From NCBI GenBank assembly GCA_021851715.1, contig JAJZCR010000004.1:8703-72702 (forward strand): DNA of 64,000 bases, written 5' to 3'. Shown in pieces: positions 1 to 10,201 of this stretch. Source of the stretch: Planctomycetota bacterium (lineage in GTDB: Bacteria; Planctomycetota; Phycisphaerae; WQYP01). A program made the translations under genes and the position numbers. The notes under the pieces were generated by a model, which made no database searches, was not told where the DNA came from, and saw nothing but the letters and a program-made list of their open reading frames with translations. Position 1 is the stretch's first letter; every line of letters starts with the position of its first letter.

Positions 1-50
1 TGATCAACTTCTTCGAGAAGGACCTTCCAGTGGCGATATTCCAGGCCTGA
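1..50 (+). CDS. 3' end of an unseen upstream ORF (...INFFEKDLPVAIFQA*), partial at window edge
   Basis: Frame 3 is open from the window edge to TGA at 48-50. That stop overlaps the ATG at 50-52 (TGATG), a typical translational-coupling junction. No function can be assigned from 15 residues. Confidence 0.35.
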   Translation, partial: INFFEKDLPVAIFQA

Positions 51-508
51 TGGTTTTGGACGCGGCGGCAACTGTGGACTATTACCCAGCCAGATGGATT
101 GGACCAAAAGGACGAACGGGGTGCTATGTGGCGCGCAGAAACCCAGCCTACGGAGCCCCGTTATGGTGTTACGTACAGTTGGAAGACGGGGTAGCAAAAT
201 ACATGGTAGACTTTCCCACGAAAGGCAGCCGATGGAGAGGTTGCGATGAGGCATGGCATCTTCAAATGGCGATTGACGCCCATCGAGGAGTCCCTCAGAA
301 ATTTAAACTCTCCACGGCCCGCCCAGGTTCGTACGACCTACACATGTACTCGCCGTTGCCCATGTGGGCAGAGCGACGGTGGGAGGCGATTGGTACACGA
401 ATTGAAGCGGCCAACTGCTTGCTTGCGTTTCGTTTTCCACAGATTGAGATCGACGAGGAACGCCACTTCGCGGTTTCGTCGCTGTGGCTTGCACAGGTCG
501 GTGATTAG
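50..508 (+). CDS. Hypothetical 152-aa protein, orphan partner of the giant helicase
   Basis: This is a track ORF whose ATG overlaps the upstream stop, and it ends (TAG 506-508) 23 nt before the helicase ATG. It shares the helicase's atypical codon usage. It is Trp/Arg-rich with 4 Cys and has no TM segment, signal peptide or motif I recognise. Confidence 0.55.
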   Translation: MVLDAAATVDYYPARWIGPKGRTGCYVARRNPAYGAPLWCYVQLEDGVAKYMVDFPTKGSRWRGCDEAWHLQMAIDAHRGVPQKFKLSTARPGSYDLHMYSPLPMWAERRWEAIGTRIEAANCLLAFRFPQIEIDEERHFAVSSLWLAQVGD

Positions 509-531: not shown

Positions 532-3500
532 ATGTCGATGACAATTGGAGAGACGATTCAAGAGTTGCACACGGCACTTCGTGACTACATCGAAGCGACG
601 TATCACATCAGCAATCCGGTACTTGTGGAGCAGCGCCGTCAACTCCTGGAACAGCCGGGAATTATCCATCAAAAGCCATACCTGGAAAGTACGCCGCGGT
701 ACAACACTTCGAGCTCATTTGCTTCACTCGGCCTCGACTCCGCCGCGCTGGAGGTATTCTCTGACGTTTCAGAACAAAAGGGTGAGTTGGGCGTGCTCAT
801 CCATGATCCGCCGTATCAACATCAAGCGGCGGCAACGAAACTCGCGCTCGTGGATGGGCGCAGCCTTATGGTCATGACCGGGACGGGCTCGGGTAAGACG
901 GAATGCTTTCTGCTTCCGATTCTTGGAAAGCTCGCACGCGAGGCGAAAGGTAATGGGCCAGAATTCGGCCACACGTCTGCTGTTCGTGCCATGGTGCTTT
1001 ATCCGATGAACGCGCTCGTCAATGATCAACTCGGACGACTGCGGCTGCTATTTGGCGACCCGCGCATCGTCGAGCGCTTCATGAAGTGGTCGGGGCGGCC
1101 CGTACGTTTTGCACGCTACACAGGCCGAACCCTCTATCCAGGCGTTCGCGACGAAGACAAAGATAAAGAGCGCCTCGCACCCATAGGCAAGTATTACGTG
1201 GACAACCTTGAAATCGCTGGCGGTGCAACAAATCCTGGACAAGCCGCAGCGGCCAAGCTGGTTAACGAGTTGCAAAAGCGAGGAAAATGGCCATCGAAGC
1301 CCGACCTGGCCGCGTGGTACGGAAAGAAGAATGCGCGATGGCGTGATGCAAAGACCGGCGAATTCAAGCGATGCGTGACGTTGCCGTCTGATCCTGAACT
1401 GATCACCCGTCATGAAGTACAGGCGGCACCACCCGATGTACTGGTCACCAACTACTCGATGCTCGAGTACATGCTCATGCGGCCCCTTGAGCGGCCGATC
1501 TTCGATGCCACCCGAGATTGGCTGCAAGCGAATCCAGACGAAAGATTTCTGCTTGTTATCGACGAAGCTCACTTGTATCGCGGAGCGGGTGGCGCTGAAG
1601 TTGCGCTTCTTATTCGACGCTTACGCATGCGGCTCGGCATCCCCGCCGAACGTCTTCAGGTGATTTGCACAAGTGCCAGCTTTGAGGATGCGGATTACGC
1701 TGTCCAATTCGGCGCTCAACTCACCGGCAAAGAAGTTTCCGATTTCAGCCAAGTGCAAGGAGGCCTCAATTGGCGGCCTAACGCGGCCGCAGGCACAGCC
1801 GATGATGCCCAAGCACTCGTGGCCATCGACCTTCAACAATTCTACGATGCTGAATCCGACGCAATACGACTGAATCAGGTGAGGTCGTTCCTTGACTACA
1901 GGCATGTCGGCACCGGCTACGGCTTGCAGAAGGCCCTGCATGTGGCTCTCGCTTCATTTCCAGTGATGGCCCAACTAATCAACATCACCATGACTGAGGC
2001 CCAACCACTGGACGGGCTCGCTGACGCGCTCTTTCCGAATAGCCCAACCTTAGTTGCGGCGCACGCTGTCACAAATCTGATTGCGCTGGGCAGTATTGCC
2101 CGACCGTCGCCTTCCGAGCCGGGATTGCTACCTTGCCGGATTCATTCATTTTATCGCGGGTTACCTGGGCTTTGGGTCTGCATGGACCCAGACTGCACTG
2201 CTCTGCCAGCGCTACAGCGCGGCAGAATCTGCGGAAAGCTTTACGGACAACCGGTTGACGCGTGCAAGTGCGGTGCCCGAGTCCTTGAACTGTTCACATG
2301 TCGCGGTTGCGGAACCGCGTACGGTCGGGCATACACGAATGATGTTGAGTCGCCTGACTATCTCTGGTCGGAGGCGGGTAGTGCGTTCCGCACCTCGGCC
2401 GGCGATTTCGACGCACTATCACCAATAGACCTTCTTCTGGAGGAACCAAGCGACCGAGACGGGATTGAGCCAGCGGAATATGACCTCGTTACGGGTCGCC
2501 TAAACCCCAAGAAGCTTGGCAGCAGAAACCGGCAGGTCTTCATTCGCTCTGCCCGCGGCAATGCGCCTGACGATGACGACGGACCGCGCGCAGCAGCGCC
2601 AGGCGAATTCCGACCGTGTGCCGTGTGCGGAGAAACCGCGTCCTTTGGCCGCTCATCTGTCCAGGATCATCAGACCAAAGGAGATCAGCCATTCCAAGCG
2701 CTCATTGCGAAGCAGATTCAGGTTCAGCCCCCAAGCGCTGTGGCGGCCACAAACCTTGCACCGCTGCGGGGTCGCAAGGTTCTGATTTTCTCGGATTCTC
2801 GGCAAGTGGCAGCACGACTTGCGCCAAATCTTCAGACTTATTCCACGCAGGATGCAATGCGCCCCCTCATTTTGGCTGGATACGCAAAACTCTCAAACTC
2901 ACCGATTGTTGCCACTCTGCTTTCACTGGAAGATCTGTATCTCGGCGTGCTGATAGCCTCGAAGGAACTCGGAGTGCGGCTTCGTCCGGAACTGAAAGCT
3001 GGCGAGAGCTTCCAAGACGAGCTTGTTGTCGGAGAAGCCGTGAGAAATGGCGTCGTGTCGAAGGACACAGAGTTGCTGCAACTGTTCAATCAGTTGCGAG
3101 CGTCCGCGCCGCCAGAGTCTTTGTTGCGTGCCATTACGAAGTCGCTCGGTGATCGCTACTACGGACTGGAGTCGCTCGCTCTTGCCTCCTTGGTCGAGCG
3201 CGCCGCCCACACGGGCAAACTTCAAGCACTGCCCGACATTCCCGGCTATGCCGTTACGGCCGCAGAGAAGCTCGCACTCGCGCGAGCGTGGCTGCGCTGC
3301 TGGAACCGGCCCGGACTGTGGCTTAGTCGTATGCCTCCGGCATGGTGGCTCGTCGAAGTGCAATCGCATTCCGGCAAATTCAAGGACATCCAGCAACGAC
3401 TTCTGCCAGACAAAACCGCTCACAAAGTGTTTGAGCATGATTGGATTCCCAAGCTGCTCGCAATCTTTGCCGATCAAGTGTCACCGGGGAAATACCGGAT

Positions 3501-6072
3501 GAAAGGAAGCGAACTGTCGCTATTGATTGGCGGCAGTTGGTCGTACTGTCAATCATGCCGAACGGCGCAGCGCCCATTCCCCGGCCGTGCCACGTGCGTC
3601 AACTGCGGACACAATAAGGCACAACCCATTGATCCCAACACCGACACTGTCTTCGTGGCGAGAAAAAACTACTACCGAGCGAGCACCGTCAATGCTTTGC
3701 GGGACCCGCCAATTCCACCGATGGCATTGATCGCGGCGGAGCACACGGCGCAGCTAAATACGGCACAAGCCCAAGACGTTTTCTCCAAAGCCGAGGAGCA
3801 TGAGTTACTGTTTCAGGACGTAGATCTCGGCGGTGACAGCACCGGCCGTGACCGGCCTGCGATTGACGTGCTTTCCTGCACCACGACGATGGAAGTCGGA
3901 ATCGACATCGGAACTCTATCAGGCGTTTCGCTCAGAAACATGCCGCCGGCACGCGCCAACTACCAGCAACGTGCTGGCCGAGCTGGCCGCCGCGGCAATG
4001 CCGTAGCGACCGTAACGGCCTTCGGTAGCGCAGACAGCCATGATGAGCACTATTTCTCGAATCCCGACCAAATAATTCGCGGGGCGGTGGCCGATCCGAT
4101 TTTAACGCTCGCAAATTGCGAGATCGCCCGGCGCCACGTCACGGCGTATCTGCTTCAGCGTTACCACCAACACAAGCTGCCCAACATCCGTCCCGAGGAT
4201 CAGCCACATCTTTTTGCTGTTCTCGGCACCGTTTCGAGCTTCAAAGACGCCAATTCGGTCCTGAACCGTTCGGATCTTGGCGAGTGGCTTGCTGCGAATG
4301 AGCACATACTCAAGCAGGAGATACTTGCTTGGTTGCCTGCTGAGATACCACACGAAGACCGGCAGCACATGGCGGATGCGCTAATCACTGAGACGCTTCA
4401 GCCGATTGATGCGGCCATTGAATATGCTGCTGGCACCACACCGACAGTCGGCAGTTCAGGACCGCAACAAGGTAGCCCGGATGCACCGGTTTCAGAGGTC
4501 CAGGACGAAGAAGGTGAAGAATGTTCGGTTCAAAATGGAGCCTCGGAAAATCTGCTCGATCGGCTCCTCTACAAAGGCGTGCTCCCGAGGTATGCATTTC
4601 CAACAGACGTGTCCGCGTTTCATGTCTTTGATCCCGAGCGGTCAACAAAATACAGGCCTGCGTTTCGCTTTACTCCGTCGCAGGGTTTACCAGTCGCGCT
4701 TTCAACATACGCCCCAGGCAAAGAAGTCTGGATCGGTAGTAAGCTCTGGACATCGGGGGCGATCTATTCGCCGATTTCGAGCGATCGGTATCGGGCTTGG
4801 GAAGCCCGGCGATATTACTACGAGTGTCGGTACTGCCATTATGCTCGCACGACGAGCATGACGGAGGGAACGCGTGGCGAAGTGAAGGATTGCGAGGCTT
4901 GTGGCAAGGCCGGCACATTCGGGCCAGCCACCTATTGGCTCCGACCACCAGGCTTCGCTCATCCAGTATTTAAGGAAGAAGGAACCTCTCCCGACGATCA
5001 GCCGGCTCGCAGCTATGCTACGCGAGCGAAACTGGCGATGCCGACGCCGCCCGATGAGGCCAAGTGGATCAGACTCAACGACCATGTCCGTGTCTACGGC
5101 ACACGGCAGCATCTTCTTGTGACAAACCGCGGACCTCGTGGGGAAGGCTATACCTACTGCACCAAATGCGGGCTGATTGAACCGACGGCTCTACCCAACG
5201 GGATAGTCGGCGCTGCGCATCGTAAACCATTTCCAGATTTGAAGGAGCCGATGTGTCCCGGTGGCGGAGCCACCCGTGGTATGGTGCTCGGCACGGACTT
5301 TATCAGCGACGTCCTCTTGATTTCCCTCAATATAGACGCGCCGTTAATGCTTCTTCCCGGATTGCTTGCAACCGATGTCGCGCTGCGAACGGTCAGTGAG
5401 GCTCTCACCAAAGCAGCTTGCCTCCGGCTCGAGTTGGAAGCGAACGAGTTGCAGGCCGAGTACCGGCCCGCGTTGACGCCCGACGGCCGCGAGGGTCGCG
5501 AGGCCGAAATCTACCTATATGACACGCTTTCCGGAGGAGCCGGGTTCGCTCAGCGCGTCGGGAAGCTCGGGCCCGCGGTGTTCGAAGATGCGCTTGGGAT
5601 TCTCCGGAATTGTCCGGCGAATTGCGACAGGTCGTGTTACCGCTGTTTGCGAAGCTACAAGAACAAGTTTGAACATGATCTTCTCGATCGTCACGTCGGT
5701 GCAAGTCTCCTCCGCTTCGTCCTACACAACGAGGTTCCGGCCGTGACGCCGGATCGCCTTGAACGCTCCACAGAATTGCTTTTTCAGGACTTGGAACGCC
5801 AAGGGGTCGATGGCCTGACGCTGACCAGAAACGCGGTAGTATCCGTGCCAGGTCTGCCGAACGTGGTAGCGCCGATACTCGCAACCACTGCTGCCGGCCA
5901 GCGAATGGTGATCGGGCTGCATGGCCCGCTGACCCCGGGCACTCTGGACGACGATGCGTTGACTCAACTGAAAAAGTTGCCCCTTGCTGTTCCGGTTGAG
6001 GCAATTGATGAGCTTGTTGTTCGTAGAAATCTTCCCAGCGCGACCGCTTCGCTTCTGTCAAAACTTGGATGA
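532..6072 (+). CDS. Giant SF2 DEAH-box helicase with multiple Zn-ribbons and C-terminal DUF1998/MrfA-type Zn-binding domain (DruE-like / DrmA+DrmB-fusion-like)
   Basis: GGAG lies at 522-525, 6 nt before ATG 532. N-lobe motifs: Q-motif PYQHQ, Walker A MTGTGSGKTE (GTGSGKT = nt 877-897), LYPMNALVNDQ, TNYSMLEY, DEAH box VIDEAHLYRG (DEAH = nt 1561-1572) and TSAS. C-lobe motifs: RecA2 entry KVLIFSDSRQ (aa ~750), motif V TTTMEVGIDIG and motif VI QQRAGRAGRRG (nt 3964-3996). The C-terminal DUF1998-type block is YLYDTLSGGAGF...CPANCDRSCYRCLRSYKNKFEH (nt 5611-5676). Confidence 0.85.
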   Translation: MSMTIGETIQELHTALRDYIEATYHISNPVLVEQRRQLLEQPGIIHQKPYLESTPRYNTSSSFASLGLDSAALEVFSDVSEQKGELGVLIHDPPYQHQAAATKLALVDGRSLMVMTGTGSGKTECFLLPILGKLAREAKGNGPEFGHTSAVRAMVLYPMNALVNDQLGRLRLLFGDPRIVERFMKWSGRPVRFARYTGRTLYPGVRDEDKDKERLAPIGKYYVDNLEIAGGATNPGQAAAAKLVNELQKRGKWPSKPDLAAWYGKKNARWRDAKTGEFKRCVTLPSDPELITRHEVQAAPPDVLVTNYSMLEYMLMRPLERPIFDATRDWLQANPDERFLLVIDEAHLYRGAGGAEVALLIRRLRMRLGIPAERLQVICTSASFEDADYAVQFGAQLTGKEVSDFSQVQGGLNWRPNAAAGTADDAQALVAIDLQQFYDAESDAIRLNQVRSFLDYRHVGTGYGLQKALHVALASFPVMAQLINITMTEAQPLDGLADALFPNSPTLVAAHAVTNLIALGSIARPSPSEPGLLPCRIHSFYRGLPGLWVCMDPDCTALPALQRGRICGKLYGQPVDACKCGARVLELFTCRGCGTAYGRAYTNDVESPDYLWSEAGSAFRTSAGDFDALSPIDLLLEEPSDRDGIEPAEYDLVTGRLNPKKLGSRNRQVFIRSARGNAPDDDDGPRAAAPGEFRPCAVCGETASFGRSSVQDHQTKGDQPFQALIAKQIQVQPPSAVAATNLAPLRGRKVLIFSDSRQVAARLAPNLQTYSTQDAMRPLILAGYAKLSNSPIVATLLSLEDLYLGVLIASKELGVRLRPELKAGESFQDELVVGEAVRNGVVSKDTELLQLFNQLRASAPPESLLRAITKSLGDRYYGLESLALASLVERAAHTGKLQALPDIPGYAVTAAEKLALARAWLRCWNRPGLWLSRMPPAWWLVEVQSHSGKFKDIQQRLLPDKTAHKVFEHDWIPKLLAIFADQVSPGKYRMKGSELSLLIGGSWSYCQSCRTAQRPFPGRATCVNCGHNKAQPIDPNTDTVFVARKNYYRASTVNALRDPPIPPMALIAAEHTAQLNTAQAQDVFSKAEEHELLFQDVDLGGDSTGRDRPAIDVLSCTTTMEVGIDIGTLSGVSLRNMPPARANYQQRAGRAGRRGNAVATVTAFGSADSHDEHYFSNPDQIIRGAVADPILTLANCEIARRHVTAYLLQRYHQHKLPNIRPEDQPHLFAVLGTVSSFKDANSVLNRSDLGEWLAANEHILKQEILAWLPAEIPHEDRQHMADALITETLQPIDAAIEYAAGTTPTVGSSGPQQGSPDAPVSEVQDEEGEECSVQNGASENLLDRLLYKGVLPRYAFPTDVSAFHVFDPERSTKYRPAFRFTPSQGLPVALSTYAPGKEVWIGSKLWTSGAIYSPISSDRYRAWEARRYYYECRYCHYARTTSMTEGTRGEVKDCEACGKAGTFGPATYWLRPPGFAHPVFKEEGTSPDDQPARSYATRAKLAMPTPPDEAKWIRLNDHVRVYGTRQHLLVTNRGPRGEGYTYCTKCGLIEPTALPNGIVGAAHRKPFPDLKEPMCPGGGATRGMVLGTDFISDVLLISLNIDAPLMLLPGLLATDVALRTVSEALTKAACLRLELEANELQAEYRPALTPDGREGREAEIYLYDTLSGGAGFAQRVGKLGPAVFEDALGILRNCPANCDRSCYRCLRSYKNKFEHDLLDRHVGASLLRFVLHNEVPAVTPDRLERSTELLFQDLERQGVDGLTLTRNAVVSVPGLPNVVAPILATTAAGQRMVIGLHGPLTPGTLDDDALTQLKKLPLAVPVEAIDELVVRRNLPSATASLLSKLG

Positions 6073-6082
6073 CGGGCAACGG

Positions 6083-6316
6083 ATGATGAGCACGGCAATT
6101 CCAACGACAACGTGGCCTTGGACAGCGACTTCGCCAACTTCGTGGCCCAACGCGCCGGACGATTTAACTTTTAGCGCGCTGAAGGAAATAGAGACGTGTC
6201 CCCGCCGCTGGGCTTTGGCTTGGACGAGTTATCCCTCGCTTTGGGGTGATCGCGGATATCCCCCGAAACCCAACATCCGAGCCCTTGCCGGAATCATAGT
6301 GCACACTGTGCTGTAA
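6083..6316 (+). pseudogene. N-terminal stub of a Cas4/RecB/AddB-like PD-(D/E)XK nuclease, truncated by in-frame stops
   Basis: It starts 10 nt after the helicase stop. It encodes ...PDDLTFSALKEIETCPRRWAL...GIIVHTVL*, which resembles the Cys-containing N-terminal helix and the GxxxH motif of Cas4-type nucleases. TAA at 6314-6316 and a second TAA at 6335-6337 end the frame, and no D...(D/E)xK core follows. It could alternatively be an intact 77-aa ORF. Confidence 0.45.
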
Positions 6317-6648
6317 TCCATTACCAAGGAACTGTAAACGCCGGGTGCCCGTCGGTGCTTGACGCCTCTGCCGTCGTGGTGCGTCGGTGCTGGGGACCGT
6401 CACCTATTAAATACCGGCGTGCAATTTGCCTTTCCTTGGCCTTCCGGGGGGGTAGTGCGCGCAAGGGTCGTCCGACAAGTTTCTCAAGTTTACTCATGGT
6501 GCTGTCACCGGGCAGCGGCCGGCCGGTTGGCGTGGCCCGGCGACGCATCGCGATTTCTCTTGGATCGTCGGGCTGCCGGAGGAAAGCCTGCCACGCCTGC
6601 GGAGTCGGCCGGGGTCTGCTGACACCGTTGGTGTTCGCCACGGCTGGA

Positions 6649-6800
6649 GGGACCCAGCCGGCTACGGCAGGCTGGACGGGAGACGGGCGGTCCCGATTGG
6701 CGACTCCTGTCACATCGGGATTTCGGCATCCATGCCTCAACGGCGGGGACGCCTGCATCACAAAACAGGAGCATCGCCGGAGAGTGCGGGGGCGGGTTTC
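6649..6800 (+). repeat. Diverged copy (A) of a dispersed intergenic repeat element
   Basis: GGGACCCAGCCGGCTACGG (6649-6667) matches 17449-17467 with 2 mismatches. The hairpin TCCCGAT (6691-6697) / ATCGGGA (6714-6720) is followed by TTTCGGCATCCATGCCTCAACGGC, which matches 17413-17444 with 3 mismatches and 1 indel. The tail to 6800 aligns only loosely with 17449-17506. Confidence 0.4.
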
Positions 6801-8346
6801 AGGGCACAAGCGCCGCCAGGGCTTCCACATCGCCGGAGGTTTCATCCGTCACCCCGTGCGACTCATGGCGCTGGGGGACGGTAGGACCGTACTGGGCATT
6901 TTCCCGACCGGCGTGCACATCTTCGCGCACCTGCTGGAGGCCCTTAAAAATATCCGCAGCCGAACGATAGGTGGCGCTGGCCCCGTCCATCGGGCGGAGA
7001 ACAGCCTCCGTGAGCCGCTTGATCAGCCGGGCTTCCAGAGTTCGCGGACCAAACCGCACCAACCCCCGGAAATCCGGATTGCCGTGCGGCTTATTGAACT
7101 GGACCGCCAGATAAAATAAATCCACGGCCTTGTCCACCTTGTGATGGCCGTCGCTGAGCACGCGCGATGTCACCAGCCCCTGATCTTTCATCTGGCCGAG
7201 CATGCGCTGAATCTGGCTGGTGCGCATCATTTCCTCAAAGAGTGTGGACAAAAGCGAATTGTCCGCGAACTTTTCGCCCACCCGCACCGCCGAGCCAAAG
7301 TCAATGAAGCCCACGCCGTGCTGGGTAACCACAAAATTATCCAAACGCAGATCCAGGTGAATCACGCCGATTTTGTCATGCATCACGGCCAGCAATTCCG
7401 CCGCCTGCGAACAAAAATCCAGTTGGGACAGCCCGGCCCCGCCGTTGCGCATCCAGTTCATGTACAACGTGCGCACGAAACCGCGGGAATCGTGCTCGAC
7501 CCCCAAACACCGCGGCACGCGATTTTTGTATGGTTCGGGCAGATCTCGCTCCAGGATCTTGAGCATGGCCGCTTCCCGTGTCAGAAAGACCGGGAATATC
7601 TTTTCCGTGAACTTTCCCGCCCGCCGCCGGATGTCATCCATGGACGCATCCGGAAATCGTTCCTGCAGCCGGGCCATCACCCGGTCAATGGTGGGCACAC
7701 GCTTCACCACCACATAATTTTCATCCTCGGCATGCCGTTTGGCCAATTGCACGTGATACGTAAAACGATCGGACGATTGTCCGGGTTTGATCAGGTCCAC
7801 CTTCCGCACCACAAAATAATGGACCTTTCTGGACCAGGGCAGCGGCAAGCGGCGTACGCGCGTCACCGGCACATCGATGAGAAACCCCGCCCACCGTCTG
7901 TAACGCTGGGCTAAGTTATGCACGGCCTTTTGATCATCGGAGAAAAAAATCACCCGCCCGCCCCACCGCAGGCTAGAAAATAATTCATCCGGAGTCGCAT
8001 TTTCATTGGCGGGGATAAACAGATGGTAAGTCAACCCGCGCTGATCACCGCTGAAACCATCCGGCAGCGTCTGCAGATATTCGCGGTCATGGTCAAATAC
8101 TTTGTGCTGTAAAACGGGAACCAGCGGCGAAGAGTCCGCCAGTTTAAGCAAGCGGTCCAGAATTACAGAATCATGTGTCGGCATCATATTCAGCCCACCT
8201 GTGAAAACGTCCAGGTCTGATACCGCGTCCTGCTCGAAATTTCCGTCCTTGGCATTGCAGCCGGTATTCTCTACCTGGTCCTTTTCCCGGCGCTGCAGGG
8301 TCGAAGCCTCTTCAGGAACCCCGTCTTTCATCGGTGAGCTATTCAT
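6799..8346 (-). CDS. Atypical protein-kinase-like protein (Kdo/WaaP/RIO-like catalytic loop) with an uncharacterised ~250-aa N-terminal domain
   Basis: The catalytic loop is VIHLDLRLDNFVV (HxDxxxxN), the DFG-type motif is GFIDFGSA, and there is a VVVKRV Lys candidate. Codon usage is host-like. The start is uncertain: ATG at 8346 (MNSSPMKDG) or GTG at 8409. Confidence 0.7.
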   Translation of the reverse strand: MNSSPMKDGVPEEASTLQRREKDQVENTGCNAKDGNFEQDAVSDLDVFTGGLNMMPTHDSVILDRLLKLADSSPLVPVLQHKVFDHDREYLQTLPDGFSGDQRGLTYHLFIPANENATPDELFSSLRWGGRVIFFSDDQKAVHNLAQRYRRWAGFLIDVPVTRVRRLPLPWSRKVHYFVVRKVDLIKPGQSSDRFTYHVQLAKRHAEDENYVVVKRVPTIDRVMARLQERFPDASMDDIRRRAGKFTEKIFPVFLTREAAMLKILERDLPEPYKNRVPRCLGVEHDSRGFVRTLYMNWMRNGGAGLSQLDFCSQAAELLAVMHDKIGVIHLDLRLDNFVVTQHGVGFIDFGSAVRVGEKFADNSLLSTLFEEMMRTSQIQRMLGQMKDQGLVTSRVLSDGHHKVDKAVDLFYLAVQFNKPHGNPDFRGLVRFGPRTLEARLIKRLTEAVLRPMDGASATYRSAADIFKGLQQVREDVHAGRENAQYGPTVPQRHESHGVTDETSGDVEALAALVP

Positions 8347-8575
8347 ACGCGCATCAGGAAAATAACGCCCGCCGCGGATGAAGGCAGTTCGCCGCCAACA
8401 TCCCGGCACTGGGCCATTATGCCCGGTTTTCCGCGGATAACCAAATTATTTTGCCAAACCGACGACATTATAGGATGCCTAGACGTGCCAATACGGCAGT
8501 CCACCACGGCGGGTGGGTTTTATACGCCCCGGAGTATTTTTTGGTTTCCGGACCTGACTGCGGCGGGAACCTGTT

Positions 8576-10201
8576 TTACCTGCCTTGGGCCGCGACCGGC
8601 CGCCCGCCGCTGCCTGCCGCAATAAAGGCACGTACCACTTGCGCAAGTTTGCGCCGCATGGGAGCCGGGTGATAGACCATGTGCCCCCCCCGAAAAAACG
8701 CTTCCTTGATATTGGCCTGAAGTCGCGGGCTCAAGTTCAGATGATCCATCGTGTAGATCGTGGCGAAAAAAGGTGTGGCCAGATCAAAATAGCCGCTGCA
8801 CACCAGCACCTTCATATCCGGATTGCCGATCATCGCCCGCTGCAGATTATCCGCGACATTAAGATAGCCGTTGCCGCGGGTATTAAATTTCCACGGCAGA
8901 TTGGCCAGCGTCTTGTAACGCAGATTGTTGGTGTAGTGCAAATCGCGCCGCACATACCAGTTAAACGCGCTGGTGAACGGTGCCACATAGCGCGACAAAC
9001 CCGGATCATACGGTGCCATACCGGCCGTCGGATCCGGGTTGTACCCGCTCAGCCGGGTGTCCATGCGGCTTACCACCAGCCGCTGGGAACGCAGCAGCCG
9101 CTGTTCAAAGGCAAACGGATTGATGCGCAGGTTGGCCAGCAAAATAAATTTTTCCGGCAGACCGGTATAGCGGGCCAGCTTGGCGGCAATCACCGCCCGC
9201 CGGGCCTTGCTTAAGGTGCTGCCTTCGGCCAGTGCCGGCATGTACACATGCAAGGCCCATCTTTCCACCTTGGCCAGGGTGCGATGAAAATGCGCTTCCA
9301 GATCCGCCGGTAGTTTGTGATGATACCACGCCGTCGCCGTGTAGGATGGCAGATACAATGGGTACGGAACCTCATTGCCGGCCGATGGTTCCAGGGTTTC
9401 AAAATTCAACACCGACGAAATTAAAATCACCCCGTTGAGATCCAGGCCCTCATGCCCGCTTAAATAATCGGCCAGCGCCGCGGCGCGCGTGGTACCGTAA
9501 CTTTCTCCCGCCAGAAACACCGGCGATCCCCAGCGCTGATAGGCGGTCATATATCGGCGTATAAAACTGCCCATCGATTGAATATCCGGCATCACGCCGA
9601 AAAATCTGGAAGCCGGCACTCCGGGGGCCGCCCGGCTGTAGCCGGTGCCCACCGGATCCACAAACACCAGATCGGTGGCCGTCAGCCAGGTCTGATGATT
9701 GGGGGCCAGCCTGTAGGGTGGAGGTGGAACCTTGCCTGTGGGCGTCAGCACCAGCCGCGTCGGCCCGGCGCAGCCCAGATTCAGCCATACCGCCGCCGCA
9801 CCCGGCCCGCCGTTAAATGCAAACGTCAGCGGCCGGGCGGCCTTCCGGCCCGCCGCCACATCTTTGGTGTAGGCAATAAAGAAAATCCGGGCCAGCAACT
9901 TACCGGAGCGATTGGTCATGGGCATGTATCCGCTGGTAATGGTGTAATGCAGCGGATGACCATGGATCATGATCTGTTGATGCACGATCGACAAAACATT
10001 CGGCTTCGCCGCCGGCACATGTCCCACAATGGCCTGGATGGCCGCGGCCGTCGCCGGAGCGGGATGAGGAATGGCCGGGGCCTTGATCACCGCCGGATGG
10101 TGCGGCGTGGAACGCGGCAAATCACCGGCCTGGGCTACAGCCAGGCGGGCATTGAAAATCAGGGCCAAACCACAAGTCATTTTGCATAAAGCTTTGGTCA
10201 T
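8576..10201 (-). CDS. Secreted serine carboxypeptidase, peptidase family S10-like
   Basis: The N-terminal signal-like segment is MTKALCKMTCGLALIFNARLAVAQA. Family motifs are FNGGPGAAAVWLNLG and the catalytic-Ser motif LAGESYGT. The ATG is at 10201. Confidence 0.8.
   Translation of the reverse strand: MTKALCKMTCGLALIFNARLAVAQAGDLPRSTPHHPAVIKAPAIPHPAPATAAAIQAIVGHVPAAKPNVLSIVHQQIMIHGHPLHYTITSGYMPMTNRSGKLLARIFFIAYTKDVAAGRKAARPLTFAFNGGPGAAAVWLNLGCAGPTRLVLTPTGKVPPPPYRLAPNHQTWLTATDLVFVDPVGTGYSRAAPGVPASRFFGVMPDIQSMGSFIRRYMTAYQRWGSPVFLAGESYGTTRAAALADYLSGHEGLDLNGVILISSVLNFETLEPSAGNEVPYPLYLPSYTATAWYHHKLPADLEAHFHRTLAKVERWALHVYMPALAEGSTLSKARRAVIAAKLARYTGLPEKFILLANLRINPFAFEQRLLRSQRLVVSRMDTRLSGYNPDPTAGMAPYDPGLSRYVAPFTSAFNWYVRRDLHYTNNLRYKTLANLPWKFNTRGNGYLNVADNLQRAMIGNPDMKVLVCSGYFDLATPFFATIYTMDHLNLSPRLQANIKEAFFRGGHMVYHPAPMRRKLAQVVRAFIAAGSGGRPVAAQGR

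Follow-up and report, generated by a model that had tools for sequence, protein, structure and literature searches.

The canonical Druantia type I operon, said to go back to Doron and colleagues in 2018, is reportedly druABCDE. Here we compare with the described Druantia systems a helicase gene, the open reading frame (ORF) at 532-6072 (+) of a 64,000-nucleotide (nt) window from a Planctomycetota genome (positions 8703-72702 of contig JAJZCR010000004.1); the upstream 8.7 kb of the same contig was also analyzed. In the Druantia helicases, Bell et al. (2025, PMC12458937) described a BrxA-like domain that follows RecA1. At the start of RecA2 they reported an inserted beta-barrel module bearing at least two CxxC motifs and, next to it, a MarR-like domain that carries another zinc module. 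According to the same work, two zinc-bearing inserts in the OB domain occur in all Druantia types, together with the DUF1998 cluster, while DruE of types I and II has a helix-turn-helix insert in RecA1 and a predicted inactivated Vsr-like C-terminal domain. For type III, cryo-electron microscopy structures have been reported for E. coli ATCC 8739 DruE (Hu et al. 2026, 10.64898/2026.05.12.722862), with a five-helix domain, a large two-motif zinc module and a Cap domain, and for P. aeruginosa DruE (PDB 29DU/29DP; 10.64898/2026.05.13.724313). Our searches of the PDB and the literature turned up no experimental structure of a type I DruE.

We conclude that the ORF at 532-6072 is very probably DruE, the ATP-driven DNA helicase/translocase of superfamily 2 (SF2) that belongs to an anti-phage operon of Druantia type I, and a member of the YprA/MrfA family. 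A known and structurally described family thus gains one more member. The split RecA2 lobe and the six zinc sites follow the DruE ground plan as already documented, and no new biology comes from them; what has been obtained is a residue-level map of domains and ligands for one type I DruE.

Identity of the helicase

The ORF is free of stops and encodes 1846 amino acids (aa). All SF2 motifs are present in the product (Walker A, DEAH, III, V and VI), and a script located motif I GTGSGKT at aa 117-123, DEAH at aa 344-347, TSAS at aa 380-383, the first RecA2 strand KVLIFSDSRQ at aa 749-758, motif V TTTMEVGIDIG at aa 1117-1127 and motif VI QRAGRAGRRG at aa 1146-1155, in agreement with the initial annotation, which had been made from the sequence. 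Pfam recognized only three short pieces, namely DEAD at aa 96-175 (E-value 8e-18), Helicase_C at aa 1110-1155 (8.5e-7) and PF09369 MZB/DUF1998, the MrfA zinc-binding domain, at aa 1622-1706 (9e-14). The annotation's reading of a DruE/YprA-type helicase with a DUF1998 (MZB) module is thereby upheld.

The PADLOC profile DruE1 (PDLC00013) matched the protein with 1946 bits in a single stretch, covering aa 2-1844 and profile positions 4-1773 of 1776. With the same profile, the DruE of Ralstonia solanacearum plasmid pUW163a and a DruE of Pectobacterium scored 2300 and 2006 bits, and the best DruE3 profile reached 573 bits on our helicase in three partial stretches. It could be asked whether the gene belongs to some other YprA-based system, that is, DISARM with DrmA/DrmB, Dpd with DpdJ, ARMADA or BRIGADE. 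In fact, DpdJ (87 bits), BrxH (61 bits) and DrmA (40 bits) gave weak partial PADLOC matches over the RecA motifs, those of the DrmA profiles (about 40 bits) lying on motifs V-VI only, and an ARMADA/DISARM-like gene array is found elsewhere in the genome. However, DruE1 scores more than 20-fold higher and covers the protein over its full length, druA (Pfam DruA 8e-79) and druD stand directly upstream, the operon contains no SNF2, methylase or PLD gene, and the helicase and DUF1998 are fused, unlike in DISARM. We regard membership of such a system as scarcely credible and keep the assignment to DruE of type I.

As the canonical type I comparator we used plasmid pUW163a of R. solanacearum UW163 (NZ_CP012941.1), in which DruA is annotated and followed by four genes; PADLOC assigned these to DruB1, DruC1 and DruD1 and then to a helicase matching DruE1. 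Our helicase and the pUW163a DruE (1851 aa) form one collinear BLASTP high-scoring segment pair with 33% identity. In the MAFFT alignment of the two, all helicase landmarks coincide and 22 of the 24 predicted metal ligands are identical, the remaining differences being His at C590 and Thr at C1457 in the pUW163a protein. The type I representative listed by Bell et al. (2025, PMC12458937) is WP_061581103.1, probably an earlier accession of the pUW163a DruE, as judged solely from the adjacent accession number and not confirmed.

Among PDB sequences, phmmer matched the helicase to 9tu7 (2108 aa, 6e-82), 9wae (1970 aa, 6e-67) and MrfA 6znp_A (1.1e-14). Their length and sequence match lead us to regard 9tu7 and 9wae as type III DruE proteins, not linked to specific papers. 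The alignment with 9tu7 (E 6e-82) consists of five collinear stretches, which include the Cys knuckles and the RecA2 entry strand, with these aligned motif pairs:

Helicase CMDPDC..CKCG..CRGCG with 9tu7 CSNKQC..CDCG..CSGCG
Helicase CAVCG with 9tu7 CVCCG
Helicase KVLIFSDSRQ with 9tu7 RRLLTFTDSRQ
Helicase CRYC / CEAC / CTKC with 9tu7 CRKC / CSHC / CLSC
Helicase CPANCDRSCYRC with 9tu7 C--SCDKFCHHC

Two family representatives equal in length to these chains, P0155 (2108 aa) and P0169 (1970 aa), were considered as candidates for the solved proteins themselves and rejected, their bit scores of about 190-240 against the solved chains being far too weak for identity.

Domain map, predicted zinc sites and their conservation

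AlphaFold2 models were made for aa 1-1200 (predicted local distance difference test (pLDDT) 85.7, predicted template modelling score (pTM) 0.83, 61-sequence alignment) and for aa 1160-1846 (pLDDT 78.4, pTM 0.75). The initial annotation had proposed a structural comparison with DruE, DrmA/DrmB and MrfA. With the first model, Foldseek placed MrfA 6znp_A first (1.4e-8), followed by DrmA and HamB; with the second, MrfA 6znp_A was again first (1.5e-6), followed by DrmB 7s9v_B (7.8e-4). The Foldseek library ends on 2026-04-08 and does not hold the DruE entries 9tu7, 9wae and 29DU, and the solved DruE proteins were compared by sequence alignment. The helicase has the YprA/MrfA layout of a RecA1-RecA2 core followed by OB, CON and MZB. 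Its features are as follows, with nt positions on the + strand of the window:

532-6072, +: druE, 1846 aa, from the DruE1 profile, Pfam and PDB sequence matches
532-801, +: N-terminal region, aa 1-90, two helices and then a beta-strand at aa 50-53 in the AlphaFold2 model
802-1761, +: RecA1, aa 91-410, with motifs I, II and III, from Pfam, script and AlphaFold2 model
1144-1386, +: helical insert in RecA1, aa ~205-285, from the AlphaFold2 model
1762-2106, +: all-helical inter-lobe domain, aa 411-525, helices within 423-522 in the AlphaFold2 model
2107-2676, +: beta-rich double zinc module, aa 526-715, strands within 535-672 in the AlphaFold2 model, before the first RecA2 strand
2677-2811, +: first RecA2 piece, aa 716-760, helix 718-731 and strand 750-754 in the AlphaFold2 model
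2812-3639, +: helical RecA2 insert, aa 761-1000, and zinc ribbon, aa 1001-1036, helices within 757-979 and strands within 980-1033 in the AlphaFold2 model
3640-4116, +: rest of RecA2, aa 1037-1195, with motifs V and VI, Pfam Helicase_C, aligned to 9tu7 residues 1099-1207
4117-4551, +: post-RecA2 helical domain, aa 1196-1300, and disordered acidic linker, aa ~1301-1337, from the AlphaFold2 model
4552-5271, +: OB-fold region with two small zinc modules, aa 1341-1580, beta-rich in the AlphaFold2 model
5272-5706, +: CON beta-hairpin, aa 1581-1660, and MZB/DUF1998 four-Cys module, aa 1661-1725, from Pfam and Foldseek
5707-6069, +: C-terminal alpha/beta domain, aa 1726-1846, with a weak restriction-endonuclease-fold resemblance

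About 650-700 aa, made up of aa ~411-715 and aa ~761-1036, thus lie within RecA2 or between the lobes, which bears out the roughly 700 aa of insertions reported by the initial annotation. The same annotation could put no name to the inserted regions, but published names exist for them, and the map matches the published DruE descriptions domain for domain. The all-helical domain of aa 411-525 corresponds to the BrxA-like or five-helix domain (Bell 2025; Hu 2026), the double zinc module of aa 526-715 to ZBM_L (Hu 2026) and the INS domain (10.64898/2026.05.13.724313), and aa 761-1036 to the MarR-like, Cap or Stalk domain of the literature (Bell 2025; Hu 2026; 10.64898/2026.05.13.724313). Behind RecA2, the helical domain of aa 1196-1300 corresponds to the winged helix-turn-helix-like domain of YprA proteins (Bell 2025; Hu 2026); in the model of aa 1160-1846 its helices occupy model residues 37-137, and pLDDT falls below 50 at model residues 142-178. 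By analogy, the N-terminal strand may be likened to the NTR strand of MrfA/YprA proteins, which becomes part of the RecA2 sheet (Bell et al. 2025, PMC12458937). Past MZB, the last ~120 aa of the protein form a non-PLD alpha/beta domain, for which Foldseek gave weak, non-significant matches to VRR_NUC 4qbn (E 0.09, template modelling score to target 0.50), EndoMS and Exo5. The only conserved polar residues of this domain are R1742, D1753 and N1833, none of them in a beta-strand; it lacks conserved catalytic residues and is probably inactive, in agreement with the inactivated Vsr-like domain predicted for type I DruE (Bell 2025).

The protein contains 33 Cys in total, including eight CxxC pairs, whereas 20,000 shuffles of the same protein gave 0.57 pairs on average and never more than 5; the clustering is far beyond chance. 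The script found every cluster at the nucleotides where the initial annotation had put it:

2179-2196, +: CMDPDC
2299-2310, +: CRGC
2617-2628, +: CAVC
3547-3558, +: CQSC
3595-3606, +: CVNC
4825-4836, +: CRYC
4891-4902, +: CEAC
5158-5169, +: CTKC
5611-5646, +: CPANC/CDRSC/CYRC

Read from the sequence, these clusters belong to six predicted four-ligand sets with 24 predicted metal ligands (23 Cys and one His), the fifth set being completed by His1563 in the alignment of 96 representatives described below:

Double zinc module, two predicted sites: C550, C555, C578, C580, C590, C593, C696, C699
Zinc ribbon in the RecA2 insert, predicted ligands: C1006, C1009, C1022, C1025
First OB module, predicted ligands: C1432, C1435, C1454, C1457
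Second OB module, predicted ligands: C1543, C1546, H1563, C1575
MZB module, predicted ligands: C1694, C1698, C1702, C1705

The annotation's count of at least six zinc clusters was right because the clusters at nt ~2179-2310 and ~2617-2628 together make two sites.

We then analyzed the conservation of these features across the family. An exhaustive HMMER search of 1.84 billion cluster representatives, with aa 520-1715 as the query, returned 1696 proteins at E <=1e-30, from which the family alignment of 96 near-full-length representatives (1700-2400 aa, 29-55% identity to the helicase) was built. Moreover, a word-indexed search found 3115 related proteins, the best 120 of which are 70-87% identical and nearly all 1840-1871 aa long. 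The Cys pairs are conserved among homologues, as the initial annotation had required for its claim: all ligand Cys are invariant in the 118 near-full-length close relatives aligned with the helicase, and the clustered ligands are kept in 92-96 of the 96 representatives, with Cys or His at C590. By module, the figures are about 96 of 96 for the double module, 94-96 for the zinc-ribbon Cys (the C1006 set), 93-96 for the OB-region ligands and 92-96 for the four MZB Cys. Nine unclustered Cys are not conserved among the 96 representatives.

The inserts are equally general. Their gap fractions among the representatives are at most 0.10, so every insert is present in every representative, and the inter-lobe helical domain is found in 96 of 96 with a gap fraction of at most 0.03. 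The spacings of the helicase are also close to the family medians: 169 residues against 179 from motif III to C550, 54 against 53 from C699 to the RecA2 strand, 253 against 255 from the RecA2 strand to C1006, and 112 against 107 from C1006 to motif V; motifs V and VI are 33 residues apart in all 97 proteins. The first RecA2 piece (aa 716-760) shows 50-64% identity across the family. Within RecA1 the helical insert is the least conserved part (32-40% identity against 51-66% elsewhere in RecA1), and the Cap/Stalk-like insert is the most divergent region of all: distant representatives share 20% identity with it, compared with about 50% for the RecA core. In addition, the Cap region (aa 760-1110) had no phmmer match to any PDB chain.

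These results bear directly on the central claim of the initial annotation, which held the architecture to be unusual; it would then possibly be new, with extra zinc modules and unnamed inserts setting the protein apart from DruE, DrmAB and MrfA. The helicase does have about 1100 residues more than MrfA (~750 aa), and Pfam names three short pieces only. However, every insert and ligand set stands at the equivalent place in the canonical type I DruE of pUW163a, in 9tu7 and in all 96 representatives, and the features are already in print (Bell 2025; Hu 2026; 10.64898/2026.05.13.724313). Alignment to characterized DruE, chosen beforehand as the test that could refute the claim, shows the same inserts and clusters, and the architecture is therefore ordinary; we consider an unusual one very improbable.

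Operon partners and the downstream nuclease gene

The operon begins upstream of the window, with druD directly upstream of druE. The genes and gene parts next to druE are:

Contig 4010-5221: druA, 403 aa, PDLC00002 9e-177, Pfam DruA 7.8e-79
Contig 5252-8143: 963-aa ORF between druA and druD
Contig 8128-9210: druD, 360 aa, PADLOC DruD1 PDLC00010 2.9e-108, starting 575 nt upstream of the window edge
Window 2-508, +: C-terminal half of druD, PDLC00010 E 8e-59, profile 190-353 of 359
Window 6086-6340, +: stub of a Cas4-like PD-(D/E)xK nuclease gene after druE, from tblastn and direct reading of the sequence

An ORF at 50-508 (152 aa) is part of the C-terminal half of druD and not an orphan gene.

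The 963-aa protein had no PADLOC match even at E 10 and, whether searched alone or as a profile of 32 sequences, matched nothing in Pfam or the PDB. Its family profile compared with DruB and DruC of pUW163a gave an hhalign probability of 0.1%, and no similarity to DruA or DruD was seen. The DruB1 and DruC1 profiles found nothing in this genome, neither of the two further genes of type I, druB and druC, being recovered. Two PLD-like domains and druH, the marks of type III, are likewise absent here, the partners being druA, the 963-aa gene and druD. Homologues of the 963-aa gene (927-1009 aa) occupy the same position in about 70 of 80 related loci, which are all those with enough upstream sequence, and Pectobacterium odoriferum is among the loci with such a homologue. 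Nothing matched the DruB1 profile in 401 genomes from the taxonomic order to which the Pectobacterium genome belongs, and blastn with the Pectobacterium druE found no match in 5,426 complete E. coli genomes. Many of the related loci, mostly nuclease-carrying ones, have no better DruA-like match than a partial one (about aa 166-366); many of these partial matches are on the opposite strand, usually downstream of druE.

Relatives of DruE are encoded in at least 589 GTDB species genomes from many phyla. Proteins 70-80% identical to our DruE occur in Planctomycetota, Eubacteriales, Dehalococcoidia, Treponemataceae, Halotalea, Desulfobulbus, Polyangiaceae and others. A homologue 79% identical to it is encoded in the planctomycete genome CP087563.1. 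With close relatives spread over these phyla, the cassette seems to move freely between them. Base composition gave no clear signal of foreign origin, the GC content of the operon being 0.55-0.57 and that of the rest of the window 0.576.

Behind druE, about 76 codons of the nuclease gene survive (6086-6313), followed by two in-frame TAA codons and then unrelated GC-rich DNA. By tblastn, aa 16-93 of a 409-aa nuclease match 6134-6367 with 64% identity; a genome-wide search with the nuclease matched aa 8-91 at the stub and had no other match in this 88%-complete genome. A PDDEXK_1 protein of 405-470 aa lies within a few bases 3' of druE in 32 of the 80 related loci. In 29 full-length copies, C38, D199, D212-x-K214, Q225, Y229, C300, C303 and C309 are conserved, a residue pattern that reads as Cas4/AddB-like; D199, D212-x-K214 and the four Cys are all placed beyond the stub. 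The remaining 48 loci gave no nuclease match, several of them being too short downstream to tell.

The truncated gene raises the question of whether the locus is a decaying, non-functional relic that lost its effector with the Cas4-like nuclease and in which druE is only transient. Such a relic would fit a nuclease gene reduced to about 76 codons and two in-frame stops, as well as a fused C-terminal nuclease-like domain without conserved catalytic residues. However, each of the four genes (druA, the gene for the 963-aa protein, druD and druE) keeps a complete open frame, and every motif and ligand of the helicase is intact. The canonical type I system likewise has no separate nuclease, and with the nuclease unmatched in 48 of 80 loci, the short ones included, the four-gene core probably works without it. 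We therefore think a relic unlikely and retain the reading of DruE in a type I operon.

Another view, which we put forward tentatively and hold somewhat less probable than its opposite, accepts the helicase as ordinary but sets it in a widespread type I sub-lineage that we did not find described in the literature searched. There, an orphan protein of about 930-1010 aa would replace DruB and DruC, a Cas4-like Fe-S nuclease would be an optional fifth gene, co-evolution would have fitted the Cap/Stalk-like insert (aa 761-1036) for docking the orphan, and the sensing or effector route would perhaps differ from that of canonical type I. The non-canonical partner gene and the optional Cas4-like nuclease of this sub-lineage are mildly useful leads.

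Two other observations were made around the locus and in the genome. First, an ORF at 6799-8409 (-) of 536 aa, convergent with the stub, has only weak kinase-fold matches (Pfam APH 9e-5, Pkinase 2e-3), its N-terminal half being unassigned. Second, the genome encodes another YprA-family helicase of 1736 aa (contig C146, ~45.5-56 kb) with partial DruE1/DruE3 matches of about 320 bits. Downstream of it, in the same direction, come a 940-aa SNF2 helicase (PADLOC DpdE 2e-250, DrmD 6e-88) and a DrmMI-like methyltransferase (3e-73), and the array looks like ARMADA/DISARM.

Proposed mechanism and comparison with known systems

For a possible mechanism we relied on the type III DruE structures of 2026 and on MrfA. 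By analogy with these, the RecA core would translocate 3'->5' on single-stranded DNA, driven by ATP, and unwind at the junction of single strand and duplex, and the double zinc module would sit at the nucleic-acid entrance. The Cap/Stalk insert may serve as an oligomerization and partner-binding surface, with DruA, the 963-aa protein and DruD as candidate partners and not DruH. It is the fastest-evolving part of the protein and thus the likeliest partner interface; its divergence fits a partner-specific interface, which is no proof of one. The zinc sites would mainly staple the small inserted domains, or they may, as the initial annotation suggested, serve to recognize nucleic acid or partners. 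With a fused C-terminal domain that appears to have lost catalysis, DNA would have to be cleaved, if at all, by a partner.

Several points weigh against the reading of a working type I DruE with these roles. All the mechanistic steps are transferred from type III DruE and MrfA, at about 20-50% identity per domain. No sequence match links the Cap-like insert with the solved type III proteins, so that its function as an interface is argued from analogy. Bound zinc, and the way in which the eight double-module ligands pair, are predictions. Moreover, with an operon lacking DruB and DruC and a decayed nuclease gene, the system may differ from canonical type I or be impaired.

The nearest described systems can be arranged by their distance from this locus. 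DISARM has in DrmA/DrmB (7s9v, 7s9w) a YprA-family phage-defence helicase with DUF1998 and zinc modules, as here, but its helicase and OB-CON-DUF1998 parts are separate genes, while here one ORF holds both; its partners are DrmC, DrmD and DrmM, none of which is in our operon. MrfA/YprA of Bacillus subtilis (6znp, 6znq, 6zns) shares the core of RecA1, RecA2, OB, CON and four-Cys MZB. However, MrfA at about 750 aa has neither the inserts of our helicase (BrxA-like domain, double zinc module, Cap and OB zinc ribbons) nor its C-terminal nuclease-like domain.

Type III DruE has, as our helicase does, a RecA2 lobe interrupted by a zinc-bearing insertion and a helical Cap/Stalk, several Cys-rich zinc motifs and an OB-CON-DUF1998 canopy. 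It differs in its length of about 2000-2100 aa and its two C-terminal PLD-like domains, where our protein has a degenerate nuclease-like end of about 120 aa, and in a protruding dimerization subdomain reported to be type III-specific. Its Cap region in the solved chains has no sequence match to that of our helicase, and its partner is DruH instead of DruA, the 963-aa protein and DruD.

The canonical type I system of pUW163a is the closest. It differs in that its DruE is only 33-36% identical to ours, its druD matches PDLC00009 where ours matches PDLC00010, druB and druC stand where we find one unrelated gene of about 963 aa, and its locus has no separate nuclease, whereas a Cas4-like gene, decayed, follows druE here. 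The two systems agree in having druA and druD as operon partners, and their DruE proteins are alike in length (1846 and 1851 aa), inserts, motifs and all six ligand sets.

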